From: a virus | IMG/VR virus record: IMGVR_UViG_3300021961_000023 | DNA: 64,000 bases | Reading direction: 5' to 3' (one strand) | Part shown: one piece after another, positions 22,910 to 51,031 of the stretch | Layout: every line of letters starts with the position of its first letter | Position numbering within the stretch: the first letter of the stretch is position 1 | The notes under the pieces: model-generated | Database searches by the model: none | What the model was told of the DNA's origin: nothing | The model's input: the letters and a program-made list of their open reading frames with translations, nothing else | Program-made: the position numbers and the translations under genes

Positions 22910-23311
22910 ATGGGGATGTTTGACTATCTAAGAAGTTCATATGATTTGGGTGAACACTTTACGAATGTGGAGTGTCATACAAAAGATATTGAGGATGGCA
23001 TTGGTGGAACAATGACTCATTATTGGATCGATCCTCATGGGTATTTGTATGAGATTGATATCTCACAGACTGCAGATTTTGTAGAACTTAAAGAGGGTGA
23101 TGAGGGATATGAGCATGGAGTCGGACGTTCTTTTTTAAACTTTAGATGGATTCCAAACGGCAATCATGGCAAAGTCACTCCAAAACTGATTACCAAATAC
23201 GTTGAGATTTATCCATCTATATGGGGAGGAACCTGGGAATCATGGCCTCGATGTCGTGTTCACTTTAAGTATGGTAGACTTATGGACTTTGATGATGTCA
23301 CTGGGCGATGA
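22910..23311 (+). CDS. Conserved phage hypothetical protein (MGMFDY type)
   Basis: Strong AGGAGG SD; MGMFDY...TKD motif. Confidence 0.7.
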   Translation: MGMFDYLRSSYDLGEHFTNVECHTKDIEDGIGGTMTHYWIDPHGYLYEIDISQTADFVELKEGDEGYEHGVGRSFLNFRWIPNGNHGKVTPKLITKYVEIYPSIWGGTWESWPRCRVHFKYGRLMDFDDVTGR

Positions 23312-23802
23312 AAGAGTTTGATTATGAACTTGATTACAAGGTTTTGAATTTTACAGAACCCAACAATCGAAGAAAGTATCGTATTGGCAGAGGGGAACAG
23401 GGTGTTCTTATTGTACGCCCTTATACAGACATTATTGGAAAGCATTGGCGATTTAAAAACGTAGACATTGCCAAGAAATCATCATGGAAGATTTATTCGA
23501 TATTTGAAGAATATTTGAATGCTGGTGACTTTATCGGTGCTGATATGTGCCGCAAGTTCCTTGAGATGGGATTCACGCGTGCTCGTCGCTATGCAAACCA
23601 CAAAACTGGTAGAAAATACGTTACTAATCCTCCTTATTATCACACTGGTGATCGTGGAGGTGTCGCAGTATTACCACAAGAACCTGATGCACTTATTAAT
23701 GAAAAAGCACAAGCAGCACGAGTATTCAAGCATGTAAGGGATATTGCTGCAAAACACCCAAAGTATGTTATAATGAGAAAAGAATGGAGGTCTCAAGAAT
23801 GA
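23308..23802 (+). CDS. DUF4385 family protein
   Basis: YRIGRGEQGVL.V.PY...HWRFK and DFIGADMCRKFLEMGFTRARRYANHK.GRKY. Confidence 0.8.
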   Translation: MKEFDYELDYKVLNFTEPNNRRKYRIGRGEQGVLIVRPYTDIIGKHWRFKNVDIAKKSSWKIYSIFEEYLNAGDFIGADMCRKFLEMGFTRARRYANHKTGRKYVTNPPYYHTGDRGGVAVLPQEPDALINEKAQAARVFKHVRDIAAKHPKYVIMRKEWRSQE

Positions 23803-29870: not shown

Positions 29871-29932
29871 TATAAATAACTAAAAACAAAGACACAGGAA
29901 AAAATGGCTGATCGTTATCCTCTAGTTGTTGA
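29871..29932 (+). repeat. Fibre-cassette leader copy 3
   Basis: TATAAATAACTAAAAACAAAGACACAGGAAAAAATGGCTGATCGTTATCCTCTAGTTGT. Confidence 0.9.
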
Positions 29933-31172
29933 TTCTTCTAACTATAGAATCGAAGAAGTCCCTTCTGGGGATAATATTAATCTTAATGGAAACAGTATCG
30001 TCAACGCTGTTAATGTTTCTACAGCAGGTGTTGCTGCAACAAGTGTCACCGTTAGTGGCACAGTTGTAACTCAAGGTTTGAGAGTAACTGGCATCTTGAC
30101 TGCAGATCAAAACATTAGTGTTGAGGGTCTTGCAATAGGAATAGGTACTTTTAGTGGTATTGGTGTTGGGGTTAGAACCACTGGTGATCCTGGTGGAGAA
30201 GTTATTATTCCAATGCAACAACTTCGTAAAAATGTAACCATTGGATCAACAATGGGTGCCAATATTTCTGGATATGCAAATATTGCCATTGGTGAAAACG
30301 CTCTTGGGGAATGTATTAATGCCCGTCAAAATATTGCAATCGGTGTTGATGCTCTAAGAAGAGTTGGATCTTATACCACTATTCCAGCAGTAGGATATGG
30401 ATTTACTCCATATAGCAATACTTTTGATTACAAAATGCAGTTTGGTAATATTGCCATTGGACAATCTTCTGGAAGAGAACTCCAAAGTGGATATATGAAT
30501 GTCCTGATTGGTAATAACAATATGATGAAATGTGTAAATGGCACTCTCAATATATGCTTAGGTGATTTCAATCTAACTGAACTTGTTACTGGATCTGAAA
30601 ATATTGCTATTGGACATGCTGCACTTGCATATGGATTAGTATCAGGGAGACAAAACATTGCTATTGGAGTTAATGCGGCTAACACATTAGGGTTTAATAC
30701 CTGCACTCATATTGGACATCAGTATAATGCAATCACTGGAGATCTCCAGGTACAACTGAATAGTCCTCAGCAAACAGTTTATACTTATAATGCTGTTCAA
30801 ACACGCTCTGATGAGAGAGATAAAGCAGATATTCGTGACACAGTTCTTGGACTTGACTTTATTAATCAACTGAGACCAGTTGATTGGAAATGGGATTATA
30901 GAGATTTTTACAATGAAGTTACTAATACAGGTGAAGTTATTAATCATCCAAAGGATGGATCTAAAAAGCGTAATAGATATCATCATGGATTAATCGCACA
31001 GGAAGTTAAAGCAGTTATTGATCAAATGGGAGTTGATTTTGGTGGTTATCAAGATCATACTGTAAATGGTGGATATGAGACCATGACTATTGGTTATGAA
31101 GAGTTGATTGCTCCAATGATCAAAGCTATTCAAGAACTCACAGCAAGAGTAGAATCTCTTGAAAATGCTTGA
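29904..31172 (+). CDS. Tail fibre/RBP (MADRYPLVV type 3) with a C-terminal S74 chaperone
   Basis: NIAIG repeats; RSDERDKADI...GLIAQEV...YEELIAPMIKAIQEL. Confidence 0.85.
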   Translation: MADRYPLVVDSSNYRIEEVPSGDNINLNGNSIVNAVNVSTAGVAATSVTVSGTVVTQGLRVTGILTADQNISVEGLAIGIGTFSGIGVGVRTTGDPGGEVIIPMQQLRKNVTIGSTMGANISGYANIAIGENALGECINARQNIAIGVDALRRVGSYTTIPAVGYGFTPYSNTFDYKMQFGNIAIGQSSGRELQSGYMNVLIGNNNMMKCVNGTLNICLGDFNLTELVTGSENIAIGHAALAYGLVSGRQNIAIGVNAANTLGFNTCTHIGHQYNAITGDLQVQLNSPQQTVYTYNAVQTRSDERDKADIRDTVLGLDFINQLRPVDWKWDYRDFYNEVTNTGEVINHPKDGSKKRNRYHHGLIAQEVKAVIDQMGVDFGGYQDHTVNGGYETMTIGYEELIAPMIKAIQELTARVESLENA

Positions 31173-31212: not shown

Positions 31213-31860
31213 ATGAAAAAAGTTATTATTGGAACACCTGCTCTCTATGGGCAGGTTTCTGCTTATTATACCCATGCTTTAGCCGAATCTACAAAAATAT
31301 GTACTTTAAGTGGAGTTGATTTAACTGCTCTTTTTCTATCAAATGAATCTATCTTGCCGTTAGCAAGAAATGAACTTTTAAATATAGCGTACAAAAGTTC
31401 ATGTGATGAGTTTATTTTCATTGATGCAGATATTTCTTGGAATCCTCAACACATAATGGAAATAATAAACTCAAAATATGATGTTGTAGGTATTCCTTAT
31501 CCTAAAAAAACTGATAAATCTTCTGAATATGATATAGTCGTTACTTCAGGACAATCTTTGGGTGATTATATTGAAGTTGATTTAATCGGAACTGGTTTTT
31601 TAAAACTTAGCAAAAAAGTTCTACATGATCTTTGGAATGAAAGTGAAGAAGTAGTTTTCAGAGAAAAATCTATCAAAGAAATATGCAAGTATGGTAAAAA
31701 AGGTAATAAGTTCATTGGTGAGGATTATAATCTTTGTGAGACTATACAGGGATTAGGTTATAAAATATATGCATATACTAAACACACTTGCAACCATATC
31801 GGAAGTAAGGTTTATACTGCTGATTTTTATTCAGATTTAGTAAAATCTTTGTATGGATAA
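31213..31860 (+). CDS. GT-A fold (family 2-like) glycosyltransferase
   Basis: ARN..., FIFIDADISW (DxD), IGTGFL, GEDY..C, HIG. Confidence 0.75.
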   Translation: MKKVIIGTPALYGQVSAYYTHALAESTKICTLSGVDLTALFLSNESILPLARNELLNIAYKSSCDEFIFIDADISWNPQHIMEIINSKYDVVGIPYPKKTDKSSEYDIVVTSGQSLGDYIEVDLIGTGFLKLSKKVLHDLWNESEEVVFREKSIKEICKYGKKGNKFIGEDYNLCETIQGLGYKIYAYTKHTCNHIGSKVYTADFYSDLVKSLYG

Positions 31861-31862
31861 AT

Positions 31863-31921
31863 GTGCCACTTTAAAAACTGACACAAGGGGGGTTGCGACC
31901 CCTCTTTTTTTATGCCATACT
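31863..31921 (+). promoter_or_regulatory. Early palindrome/promoter element, copy 3
   Basis: GTGCCACTTTAAAAACTGACACA; TTGCGA-N17-CATACT. Confidence 0.75.
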
Positions 31922-31945
31922 ACTAAGGTAATCGAGAGATCCCCC

Positions 31946-32389
31946 ATGGGAACCGCTTTTGCTGACTTCTGTGCTGAGCAAGATGCCCGCAACACTATTC
32001 AACTGAATGTTGTTAAGTGGTGCTGGATGCTGACTGATGCTCTTCGTCAGAATTATATTGATCAAGCTATTCGTGGCCACAAACGTTATGTTGATCGTGG
32101 CGAAAATGCTCACTATCATCAGGCATGTATTACTGATCTTTCTAGTGGTCGTTGCCCGATTGATTATCAAATTGAATCTGGCAAGAAGTATCACAAACTC
32201 ATCATGGTTGATGGTGGTGGTTCCCGCTCTGTTCATGCTTTTGTGGATAAAAAGACTGGTGAAGTCTATAAATCTGCCAGTTGGAAAGCACCAGCGAAAG
32301 GTGTTCGTTATGATCTGCGACTGATCAAAGATCGTGAATGGTTGCTTGAGAATGTAGACTGGAGTGGTGGTTATTTGTACGCTCGCTAA
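31946..32389 (+). CDS. Conserved phage hypothetical protein
   Basis: SVHAFVDKKTGEVYKSASWKAPAKGVRY. Start moved to the ATG at 31946, downstream of the promoter. Confidence 0.75.
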   Translation: MGTAFADFCAEQDARNTIQLNVVKWCWMLTDALRQNYIDQAIRGHKRYVDRGENAHYHQACITDLSSGRCPIDYQIESGKKYHKLIMVDGGGSRSVHAFVDKKTGEVYKSASWKAPAKGVRYDLRLIKDREWLLENVDWSGGYLYAR

Positions 32390-32495
32390 GGTATCCTAAC
32401 CTAAACTATATTTGAACCACCTTAGAGACGCTCTCAGCAGCGTCTCTTGTGGTTTCAGTTAATATGTGCTATAGTATCATGAGTGGATTTTACCT

Positions 32496-33356
32496 ATGAA
32501 ACCTTTATTCATTTGGGCAGGTGGTAAAAATAAAATGTTGAAGCACTATCTGCCTCTGATGCCCACAGAGGTTAATAGTTATTGCGAACCATTCTTTGGT
32601 GGTGGAGCAATGTTTATCCATGTTGTAAAAACTTATAACCCATCACGATTGGTAATCAATGACATCAATGATGATGTTATGAACATCTATCGTTCGATTG
32701 CATATGATTATGAAGTTTTCAAAGATAGACTGAATAATCTTGAGGAAAAGTATATTCCTTTGGACAAAGCAGGTCGTAAAGCATTCTACTTTGAAGTGCG
32801 ACATGAACATGCATATGATTATGAACAGTGGTCAAAACCAGTAGAAGCAGCAACTCTATACTTCTTGATGAAGACTGGTTTTAACGGTATCTATCAGTTG
32901 AATAAAAATACCAATGGACGTTATGGAACTCCATCTGGATTATTAAATCAAAAGGATACTGTATATGATCGGGATGTGCTAGATTGGTGGCATCTTGTTC
33001 TACAAAAAACAGAGATTCTTTCTGGCGATTACAATAATGCAGTTCAGGATGTAAAATCTACTTTCCACTTTTTTGATCCTCCATATCGTGATAGTTTTGC
33101 AGATTATGGCAATGGATTCAGTGATGAGGATCTTCTGCACCTGATTGCAATTTCTGATCTGCGTAGGAATGTATTTCTATGTAATCGTGATAGTGGAGAT
33201 GGTTGGTTTGATGATCATAAGATGAGTCTCAATATTGCTAGATTCCCTGTAACTTATACTGCAGGACGACGTAAGAAAACTGATACAGGATTTGTGGCAA
33301 AACCTGCCACTGAAGTTTTGCTTTATCGTACAGTTCAAAATAATCTTTTTGAGTGA
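32496..33356 (+). CDS. D12-class (Dam-family) N6-adenine DNA methyltransferase; specificity probably not GATC
   Basis: WAGGK, EPFFGGGA (motif I), INDIN, DPPY (motif IV); extended -10 TGCTATAGT at 32467..32475. Confidence 0.9.
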   Translation: MKPLFIWAGGKNKMLKHYLPLMPTEVNSYCEPFFGGGAMFIHVVKTYNPSRLVINDINDDVMNIYRSIAYDYEVFKDRLNNLEEKYIPLDKAGRKAFYFEVRHEHAYDYEQWSKPVEAATLYFLMKTGFNGIYQLNKNTNGRYGTPSGLLNQKDTVYDRDVLDWWHLVLQKTEILSGDYNNAVQDVKSTFHFFDPPYRDSFADYGNGFSDEDLLHLIAISDLRRNVFLCNRDSGDGWFDDHKMSLNIARFPVTYTAGRRKKTDTGFVAKPATEVLLYRTVQNNLFE

Positions 33357-48953: not shown

Positions 48954-49850
48954 ATGCAAAACAAACACATCGAACACCCCGAAGATTCTATCCTTACGGG
49001 CGACCTTTCTGTTCTTGATTGGTTCATTCAACCTGGCAATCTTTCGGTAAAGATTGATGGTGCGCCTGCAATTGTGTGGGGTATTGATCCTGCCTGTGGT
49101 GAGTTCTTTGTAGGAACCAAAGCAGTCTTTAACAAGAAAAAGATTCGTATCGCTCACTCTCATGAAGAAATTGATGCGTTCTATCAAGGTGAGGTTGCGG
49201 TTATTCTGCATCGTTGCTTTGATTATCTTCCTCGCACCAATGGTATCTTTCAAGGTGACTTTATTGGTTTTGGCGGTTCTGATGAGTATTGCCCCAACAC
49301 GATTACTTACAAGTTTGGTGAGGTAGTTTCAGAGGAGATTATCGTTGCACCTCACACTTACTACATTGCAGAGAATGATCTGCGTGATGCTGTTGCGTAT
49401 CCGATGAAGTTTACCATCACGGATACTCCTTACGTGAAGTTTGTTCGTCCTGATGCTTACATCATGCACAATCAAGAATCGTTTGCTGATGTTAAAGAGG
49501 TGTGCGACTTTGCCCGTCAAATGTCTACCACTGCACACTTCGTAACTGATAAGGAAGCAGCAAAGATCAAGCAACAACTTAATGCCTGCATTCGTGCTGG
49601 TGAAGATCCTAACCCTAACGACTTTGAATGTGATCCTAACCTGATTCGTTTCTGGGCATTGGTTAAATCAATCAAAGATGATTGTTTGTTCCTGTGTCGC
49701 AATTGTGGTCCTGCTGCTTATCTTGGATACAACAGGATTGATGCAGAGGGTTATGTCCTCTCCAATGAGTTTGGCACGTTTAAGTTAGTCAATCGTGAGG
49801 TATTCTCTCACGCAAACTTTAACAATGGGCGGTTCCAGTGTGCCAGTTGA
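48954..49850 (+). CDS. DUF6267-like protein with ATP-dependent ligase (nucleotidyltransferase) motifs
   Basis: HIEHPED; SVKIDGAPA (KxDG); FQGDF; EGYVL; FKLVNR. Confidence 0.65.
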   Translation: MQNKHIEHPEDSILTGDLSVLDWFIQPGNLSVKIDGAPAIVWGIDPACGEFFVGTKAVFNKKKIRIAHSHEEIDAFYQGEVAVILHRCFDYLPRTNGIFQGDFIGFGGSDEYCPNTITYKFGEVVSEEIIVAPHTYYIAENDLRDAVAYPMKFTITDTPYVKFVRPDAYIMHNQESFADVKEVCDFARQMSTTAHFVTDKEAAKIKQQLNACIRAGEDPNPNDFECDPNLIRFWALVKSIKDDCLFLCRNCGPAAYLGYNRIDAEGYVLSNEFGTFKLVNREVFSHANFNNGRFQCAS

Positions 49851-50265: not shown

Positions 50266-50485
50266 GTCCTCATTCATTATACTCATGGCAACAACTTCTT
50301 TCGCTCACGGTGATTCCTACGGTGTGACCGATCATTATAATTTTGATGATCGTGACTTTGATGACTTTTACACTGCCGAAGATTATGATCAAAAAAGGGC
50401 AGAGAGGGACGGTTGGCGAACTGCCTACTGGGATGGTCGGTTCTGATCATTCTGTGCCTATAATACCTGAAGAACAAACAACCTC

Positions 50486-51031
50486 ATGGCACATCACAAC
50501 AACTTCAAAGGCGGAATTCAACCTGGCACTGTTGCGTTTGATGAGCAATCCCGTGCCATGGATGATAATGCAAAGTCTGCAATGATTCGTGTTGCTGACC
50601 TGCTGCAATCATCCTATCCTGAGTTAGTTGTACAATCGAAACTTGATCAGTCACAAATTCCTGGTGGCGTCGGTTCGTGTGCTCCTGACGGTGGAGTTTG
50701 GTTCTACAAAGGTCAACTGATTGCTGCCTTTGAGAGTAAGAAACAAGGTGCAAAAGGTAATGCAATCGAACGCTGGTTCAAGAACAATTTCATCGTTCGT
50801 GCTATCAATCCCTCTGCAACTTATGTCACGTTTGCATCAGGCGATGGCGTAGTTGCAGGCAATCCGATTCATCGAATCCTGCACATTGCACACCAAGGGT
50901 TATACGGTGTGATGAATGAAGTTCAGGTTGGCACTAACAATCTCCACTGTAAAGTTGAGGGGTTCAGTGTTGATGAGATGAGCAACATTATGATCGAAAC
51001 TCTCACAAACGTTCTGGAGTGTGCCAGTTGA
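50486..51031 (+). CDS. EcoRI/MunI-family type II restriction endonuclease-like protein
   Basis: PDGG...AFESKKQG...GNAIERWFKN...YVTF aligns by eye with EcoRI PDGG...AEAKHQG...GNAIERSHKN...YVLF. Confidence 0.8.
   Translation: MAHHNNFKGGIQPGTVAFDEQSRAMDDNAKSAMIRVADLLQSSYPELVVQSKLDQSQIPGGVGSCAPDGGVWFYKGQLIAAFESKKQGAKGNAIERWFKNNFIVRAINPSATYVTFASGDGVVAGNPIHRILHIAHQGLYGVMNEVQVGTNNLHCKVEGFSVDEMSNIMIETLTNVLECAS

Follow-up and report, generated by a model that had tools for sequence, protein, structure and literature searches.

A Dam-type adenine methyltransferase and a small EcoRI-family nuclease of a T4-like cyanophage: a probable AATT-directed restriction-modification pair

EcoRI and MunI are Type IIP restriction enzymes with an AATT core. 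The inner AATT is read in EcoRI by the GNAIER segment. Methylation of the inner adenine of AATT blocks EcoRI, and the methylase M.EcoRI modifies this inner adenine. Type II restriction-modification (R-M) systems are also present in lytic viruses, the chloroviruses (CviAI, CviAII), as a site-specific nuclease with a cognate adenine methylase; proposed uses are host DNA degradation and competitor exclusion. A further AATT-core Type IIP restriction enzyme is MluCI (PMC4081073). The D12 (alpha-class) methylases E. coli Dam (EcoDam), T4 Dam and DpnM (M1.DpnII) are GATC-specific. The element described here is a methylase gene of the Dam type, located at 32496..33356 on the + strand of the IMG/VR virus record IMGVR_UViG_3300021961_000023; the window is the whole stretch of DNA analysed, 64,000 nucleotides. 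A nuclease gene lies further along the same strand at 50486..51031, with 17,130 bp from the methylase stop to its start. The methylase and this EcoRI-family nuclease probably form a Type IIP R-M pair carried by the phage, with the methylase protecting AATT. Type IIP R-M pairs and Dam-family methylases are known; the predicted AATT specificity is new and the carrier unusual. The window is part of a T4-like cyanomyovirus, with patchy DNA and protein matches solely to Synechococcus phages of the Kyanoviridae.

In EcoDam, the contact of R124 with Gua4 on the non-target strand is the first and most discriminating one. Base pair 1 is read by K9 and Y138, L122 and P134 contact the third pair, and Y119 intercalates (PMC4417163). 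Phage-borne, Dam-related adenine methyltransferases whose specificity is not restricted to GATC are described as well (Hia5, Hin1523, M.EcoGII); the Hia5-type enzymes are only remotely Dam-like, with ~15% identity to MboIA (PMC3299994).

The methylase gene starts with ATG and encodes a protein of 286 aa with the D12/Dam fold of N6-adenine DNA methyltransferases. The Pfam model PF02086 (D12-class m6A methyltransferases) is matched over residues 7-219 (E 6.6e-30, 105.1 bits, cut-off 22). The NCBIfam subfamily model TIGR00571, 'Dam family', is passed (130.6 bits, cut-off 114.85), and the EcoDam equivalog NF008152 is failed widely (47 bits, cut-off 441). The closest solved structures by HMMER are DpnM (3e-21) and EcoDam (3e-10). 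For the AlphaFold2 model, based on 66 relatives, the predicted local distance difference test score (pLDDT) is 92.8. Its top PDB matches in Foldseek are DpnM (1.6e-18), EcoDam 2g1p (6.6e-16) and T4 Dam (4e-13), the overall range being 1e-18 to 1e-11. With EcoDam, T4 Dam and DpnM the protein shares the fold (Foldseek 1e-16 to 1e-18, TM 0.7-0.85), the motif order, motif I, DPPY, the FNG beta-hairpin, N120, a hydrophobic residue at 122 and P134. The motifs stand in alpha-class order: the S-adenosylmethionine (SAM)-binding motif I, FFGGG, at residues 33-37 (32592..32606, +, read from the translation), the recognition hairpin at residues 128-150, and the catalytic motif IV, DPPY, at residues 194-197 (33075..33086, +, from the translation and the EcoDam alignment). 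In the methylase alignment (A3), the invariant residues of these motifs are G35, D194, P196 and Y197, and F33 and G37 hardly vary. By PF02086 score, Dam/DpnM fold and alpha-class motif order the protein belongs to the D12 class. It is the sole adenine-methyltransferase-like open reading frame (ORF) with (D/N)PPY in the window. Most likely it is a SAM-dependent N6-adenine DNA methyltransferase on the Dam (D12, alpha-class) scaffold, with intact catalytic motifs and predicted to be active. Homologues of the pair in S-RIM2 and S-BM1 are labelled 'DNA adenine methylase' and 'hypothetical protein' in GenBank.

The DNA-reading residues differ from those of EcoDam. The first-pass annotation had pointed to the segments FIWAGGK and FNGIYQLNKNTNGRYGTPSG, with K9 replaced by I, R124 by Q, and N120, a hydrophobic 122 and P134 retained. 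Both strings occur in the translation, at residues 5-11 and 129-148, and the HMMER and MAFFT alignments to EcoDam agree on the exchanges and on the retained positions. The roles it gave to K9, R124, L122 and P134 match the published ones (PMC4417163). Equivalent positions are K9 and I6, Y119 and F129, N120 and N130, L122 and I132, R124 and Q134, P134 and P146, DPPY 181-184 and 194-197. EcoDam R137 and Y138 align with residues 149 and 150 (Y138 with L150), at a point where two MAFFT runs differ; because neither 149 nor 150 is R or Y, the second EcoDam reader of the first base pair is lost too. The Ile6 codon is at 32511..32513 (+), at the position of EcoDam K9, a reader of the first G:C pair (PMC4417163; HMMER and MAFFT alignments). 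The DNA-recognition beta-hairpin, residues 128-150, GFNGIYQLNKNTNGRYGTPSGLL, is encoded at 32877..32945 (+) and holds N130, I132, Q134 and P146 by alignment; the aligned Q134 codon, at the EcoDam R124 position, is at 32895-32897 (+). Unlike Dam and DpnM, the methylase has Ile, Gln and Leu at the positions of K9, R124 and Y138, and its hairpin is 2 residues longer. The contact set of the GATC enzymes is thus absent: no Arg at R124, no Lys at K9, no Tyr at Y138.

These exchanges bear on whether the gene encodes an ordinary orphan GATC methylase of the Dam type, as annotated in S-RIM2 and S-BM1, with an incidental linkage to the nuclease. Such an enzyme would pass the TIGR00571 cut-off, would explain the name 'DNA adenine methylase' given to homologues, and would agree with the GATC count of the window, in which this site is not avoided (observed-to-expected ratio, O/E, 1.4). 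However, the key discriminating R124 is Gln, K9 and Y138 are gone too, and the score for NF008152 lies far below its cut-off. Relatives with the canonical K..R combination form a separate, more distant set, and the conserved adjacency of nuclease and methylase genes in R-to-M order, including a 4-bp overlap, is unexpected for an incidental neighbour. An orphan GATC enzyme is scarcely probable, and the least so of the alternatives weighed here.

Among ~245 relatives, the commonest combination at K9/R124 is I/M/V with Q (n=148); the canonical K/R is found in 39. The substitutions are therefore not private drift, and define a clade. All nuclease-linked methylases share the 29-residue hairpin KTGFNGIYQLNKNTNGRYGTPxGLLNQKD almost unchanged, the whole proteins being 58-66% identical; a hairpin so conserved in proteins of ~60% identity argues for retained specific reading, not decay. 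A reading of the adenine opposite T4 by Gln134, and a contact of Ile6 with the thymine methyl of pair 1, would be chemically reasonable. Q134 as a diagnostic of linkage to the nuclease was rejected: four distant loci with Q134-type methylases are phage-like and nuclease-free.

A methyltransferase of relaxed specificity has also to be weighed, one reading little beyond the central A-T (NATN, WATW) or modifying most adenines, the protection of AATT then being incidental to broad methylation against restriction. The EcoDam variant R124A, in which C:G at position 4 is no longer required, loses discrimination at that position and gains no new specificity (PMC4417163). Specificity is lacking in remote relatives of Dam, Hia5 among them (PMC3299994). 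A large number of Q-type methylases are orphans, on phage contigs that have no nuclease close by, and a broad methylase would satisfy the operon logic equally well. Against such an enzyme stand the almost invariant hairpin, with Q134 and its tip NKNTNGRYGTP, in proteins otherwise ~60% identical, and the structural closeness of the methylase to DpnM and EcoDam, whereas Hia5-type enzymes are ~15% identical to Dam-like methyltransferases. Unlike the Hia5 group, the methylase has a strongly conserved hairpin and a sequence-specific nuclease partner. The site purge described below, moreover, shows selection on exactly AATT. Relaxed specificity is accordingly considered unlikely, though it is the strongest of the competing explanations.

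The nuclease gene encodes a product of 181 aa, assigned by motifs, profile and AlphaFold2 model to the EcoRI family of PD..ExK endonucleases, as the candidate cognate restriction enzyme. The product contains PDGG, ESKKQG and GNAIER. In an alignment of 44 relatives, P67, D68, E83, K85 and GNAIERW (G91-R96 within) are invariant, and the motif is kept in all 36 of the 36 loci checked. Searched against PDB, the family profile of the 44 relatives matches EcoRI alone (E 1e-5). The match consists of three segments in EcoRI order, including PDGG..EAKHQG and GNAIER, and covers EcoRI residues 86-116 and 137-175. The AlphaFold2 model has a pLDDT of 89; among its PDB matches in Foldseek, EcoRI takes the first five places (E 2e-6 to 2e-5, TMq 0.65-0.68), and MunI is sixth. 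The Pfam model PF02963 (EcoRI) is weakly matched by 4 of the 44 relatives (best E 1.6e-4), and several clusters bear a precomputed PF02963 label.

The PD..E.K core, GNAIER and the fold are shared with EcoRI. Unlike EcoRI (277 aa), the nuclease is ~100 residues shorter, has a spacing of 5 residues instead of 26 between ExK and GNAIER, and is devoid of the parts by which EcoRI reads the outer G:C pairs; it most likely therefore cuts at AATT. Plausibly, to judge from the sequence, it keeps the AATT-core reader without the outer-base readers. If so, it would rank among the smallest EcoRI-family enzymes. Among 185,579 prokaryote species genomes, the nuclease profile found one match, on a 2.9-kb contig of a metagenome-assembled genome (MAG), together with the methylase; the nuclease family is thus not linked to any characterised AATT system of bacteria.

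The first-pass annotation had taken the methylase for the protective partner of the nuclease 17 kb away. This is strongly supported by the homologues, which adjoin on the same strand, in R-to-M order, in most related phage contigs. In IMG/VR loci anchored on the nuclease (~50% identical), a methylase homologue is downstream on the same strand in 20 of 22, with a gap of <40 bp in about half. The two genes of S-BM1 overlap by 4 bp, nuclease stop with methylase start. Those of S-RIM2 are separated by one ORF of 1056 bp; this ORF (351 aa, NC_020859.1 40451-41506) is absent in S-BM1, and its only match is a sub-threshold one to DUF6551 (E 2.7e-4). Loci anchored on the methylase have a clear nuclease homologue immediately upstream in 16 of 49, and further loci have degenerate matches. 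The phage isolate collection has 65 records with a nuclease homologue (isolates of S-RIM2, S-BM1 and a few more) and 64 with a close methylase homologue (60-80% identity), of which those listed are S-RIM2 and S-BM1.

The closest relatives of the window, with nucleases 78-92% identical, have no methylase within 10 kb. In a complete relative of 190 kb (G001) the two genes are 18 kb apart, arranged as in the window. Adjacency in relatives and a gap of 17-18 kb in the window lineage point to an ancestral R-to-M operon, later pulled apart. Between G001 and the window, the nucleases are 84% and the methylases 59% identical, and the window methylase has metagenomic relatives of 90% identity; the unequal identities suggest an independent exchange of the two genes between lineages. 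G001 carries a second D12 methyltransferase (296 aa, locus L121, C1:40000-42000), which begins ...RYPGGKSRAVKYL, is without the Dam hairpin and is closer to the type of PDB 7m6b (Mcbe1) than to Dam. Its specificity is presumably a separate one.

The carriers of the nuclease show a purge of AATT, as a nuclease cutting AATT would lead one to expect. In the window, AATT occurs at 121 sites, where 426-568 are expected (O/E 0.21-0.28). The sites are evenly spread, three of them inside the nuclease gene, and depletion is seen in 10 of the 10 NAATTN contexts (O/E 0.06-0.47). Among 43 T4-like cyanophage contigs found via gp6, the median O/E is 1.05, and low values occur only in the nearest relatives of the window. 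The median O/E of nuclease carriers is 0.27, that of the 44 control loci 1.05 (Mann-Whitney p = 7e-8). When all 136 tetramer classes are compared between carriers and controls, the difference is most significant for AATT (p = 7e-16, ratio 0.23); this comparison ignores kinship, and most of its metagenomic controls are lower in G + C content (GC) than the carriers. Six isolates of Synechococcus phages matched for GC and host, with no nuclease in their whole records, have O/E values of 0.59-0.95. For phages of Synechococcus WH7803 the values are 0.95 (S-PM2), 0.84 (S-SCSM1) and 0.66 (S-CAM8) without the nuclease, and 0.18 in S-RIM2 and S-BM1 with the pair. By this same-host contrast, the purge tracks the gene pair, not the host.

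Extreme AATT loss is also seen in contigs with Q134-type methylases and no nuclease in the flanks. O/E is 0.01 over 14 kb in L125 (IMG/VR 3300025695_000225), 0.07-0.10 in L155-L157, and 0.12-0.17 in L163-L170, the latter with the variant hairpin tip QSTQAAQGRF.

An AATT-like target, the specificity predicted by the first-pass annotation, is thus supported indirectly: by an EcoRI-family nuclease with invariant GNAIER, by the AATT purge in carriers, and by a methylase that has lost the outer G:C readers and kept the elements for the central A-T. We infer the exact methylated motif, the adenine modified, the activity of the nuclease and the timing of expression as follows. The restriction half would be the 181-aa nuclease, cutting AATT with its retained PD..ExK and GNAIER. 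The methylase, as Dam, would flip and methylate the adenine preceding the central T. For the central A-T it would use the retained F/Y119 (intercalation), N120, hydrophobic 122 and P134; the outer G:C readers would be exchanged, K9 and Y138 by I6 and L150, R124 by Q134. With the Dam geometry kept and the outer readers exchanged, the modified site would be A-m6A-T-T, methylated at the inner adenine. Both genes would be expressed from similar early-type extended -10 elements, and would descend from an R-to-M operon whose genes now stand 17-18 kb apart in the window lineage. Since 121 AATT sites remain in the window, three in the nuclease gene, an active nuclease would need a protecting modification. 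The methylase is the candidate for this protection because it is the sole adenine-methyltransferase-like ORF in the window and the conserved operon partner.

Several points weigh against an AATT-specific pair, besides the kinship and GC composition of the tetramer comparison. The K9 contact varies across Dam relatives (PMC4417163), so that loss of K9 alone says little. The Q134-type clade is wider than the nuclease family, with 1771 relatives (E <= 1e-10) versus 151 (E <= 0.001), and includes orphan methylases with no nuclease nearby. Searches of Pfam (E <= 10) and PDB with the single nuclease sequence gave no match, the kinship with EcoRI being visible through the family profile and the structure model only. 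Some carriers are weakly depleted in AATT (O/E 0.69 and 0.85 in L021 and L022, 0.64-0.81 in L025, L027 and L030). In L021 (3300020472_000575, 10.9 kb) and L022 (3300030328_003971, 23.5 kb) the nuclease has intact PD..ExK and GNAIER, and no D12 methylase was found anywhere on these contigs. Full protection by methylation would, moreover, by itself make the purge needless.

The last two points would suit a phage whose sole defence against AATT nucleases, its own or those of others, is to avoid the site, its methylase having a motif unrelated to AATT. The same holds for O/E values down to 0.01-0.10 in some contigs. However, an active AATT nuclease would be intolerable without modification in a genome with the sites that are left in the window. 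The R-to-M operon structure in relatives is tight, and the window has no other adenine-methyltransferase-like ORF. Avoidance alone is thus judged very unlikely, and the AATT-protecting pair remains the preferred reading.

A wider proposal is put forward tentatively, its probability being rather below even. Lytic marine T4-like cyanophages may carry a mobile, complete Type IIP AATT module: a miniature EcoRI together with a methylase derived from Dam, whose target changed naturally from GATC to AATT through R124 to Q with K9 to I/M/V. The module might be used offensively, the phages having purged AATT from their own genomes, down to 1-10% of expectation in some contigs, and methylase-only phages might be 'antidote-only' cheaters. 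If this were true, the module could serve for shredding host DNA or the DNA of co-infecting phages, and methylase-only phages could be immune to the nuclease of competitors.

Compared with described systems, the locus is set apart by its combination of parts. Unlike Dam and DpnM, the methylase is paired with an EcoRI-like nuclease, not a DpnII/MboI-like one, is not an orphan, and fails the EcoDam equivalog. Unlike the M.EcoRI class, it belongs to the Dam/D12 family, and the system is found on lytic T4-like cyanophages. Unlike the chloroviruses, the carrier is a T4-like myovirus with a bacterial host, and the site is purged from its own genome. In the literature, REBASE not being covered, no account of the pair, a cyanophage EcoRI-like nuclease, an AATT-specific D12 methylase, cyanophage AATT avoidance or a cyanophage AATT methylome was found. 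In a marine metaepigenome preprint, A*ATT is listed for MAGs of Acidimicrobiia alone and for no virus.

If confirmed, the methylase would be a natural Dam scaffold re-targeted from GATC to AATT at structurally identified guanine readers, useful for understanding and engineering methyltransferase specificity. Abundant marine cyanomyoviruses would then carry an R-M pair of their own, and the composition of their whole genomes would be reshaped around it, AATT having become four to five times rarer. Competition between phages, the degradation of host DNA, and the reading of phage methylases and oligonucleotide biases in metagenomes are all concerned; methylases of this type are currently annotated simply 'Dam'. 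Cultured carriers of the pair exist, S-RIM2 and S-BM1 on Synechococcus WH7803, and the prediction is directly testable.

Upstream of the methylase gene, a terminator-like hairpin with a 9-bp stem and a T-rich tail (32424..32447, +, from the sequence) closes the preceding gene. An extended -10-like element, TGCTATAGT, follows at 32467..32475 (+), 20 nt upstream of the ATG. It was missed by a simple -35/-10 scan; by its match to the consensus, the extended -10 sequence that the first-pass annotation had placed before this gene is present. The nuclease gene is preceded by TGTGCCTATAAT, similar to the TGCTATAGT of the methylase, the extended -10-like element TGTGCCTATAATA being at 50453..50465 (+, from the sequence). 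A pattern TGTGC(N)TATARTA as a signal private to the two genes was dropped: it was derived from these two sites, and other TGnTATAAT elements occur in the window. The two sites thus belong to a class of early-type promoter-like sites. Neighbouring early ORFs are function-unassigned and match DUF6267 (48954-49850, 2e-76), DUF7717 (31853-32389, 5e-48) and DUF4385 (23308-23802, 4e-51). The ORF at 29904-31172 has a C-terminal Peptidase_S74 chaperone domain, typical of tail fibres.

Other sites are also unevenly represented. CCGG is absent from the window (0 sites, 31-88 expected) and from L032, L033, L036 and L173-L177. Differences in CCGG and CGCG between carriers and controls were rejected as an effect of the pair, being confounded with host group and GC. 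For CCGG a host-group effect is indicated, because the site is absent in 8 of 8 Synechococcus phage fragments, with the pair or without it. RGCY words are strongly avoided in the window (AGCT 38, GGCC 11, AGCC 9, GGCT 15). Methylated RGCY, CCWGG and GGWCC motifs are given for Myoviridae-like viral MAGs in the marine metaepigenome preprint. CATG is rarer than expected in the low-GC control contigs of T4-like cyanophages, L048-L114 (median O/E 0.42), but not in the contigs with the AATT pair (0.95).

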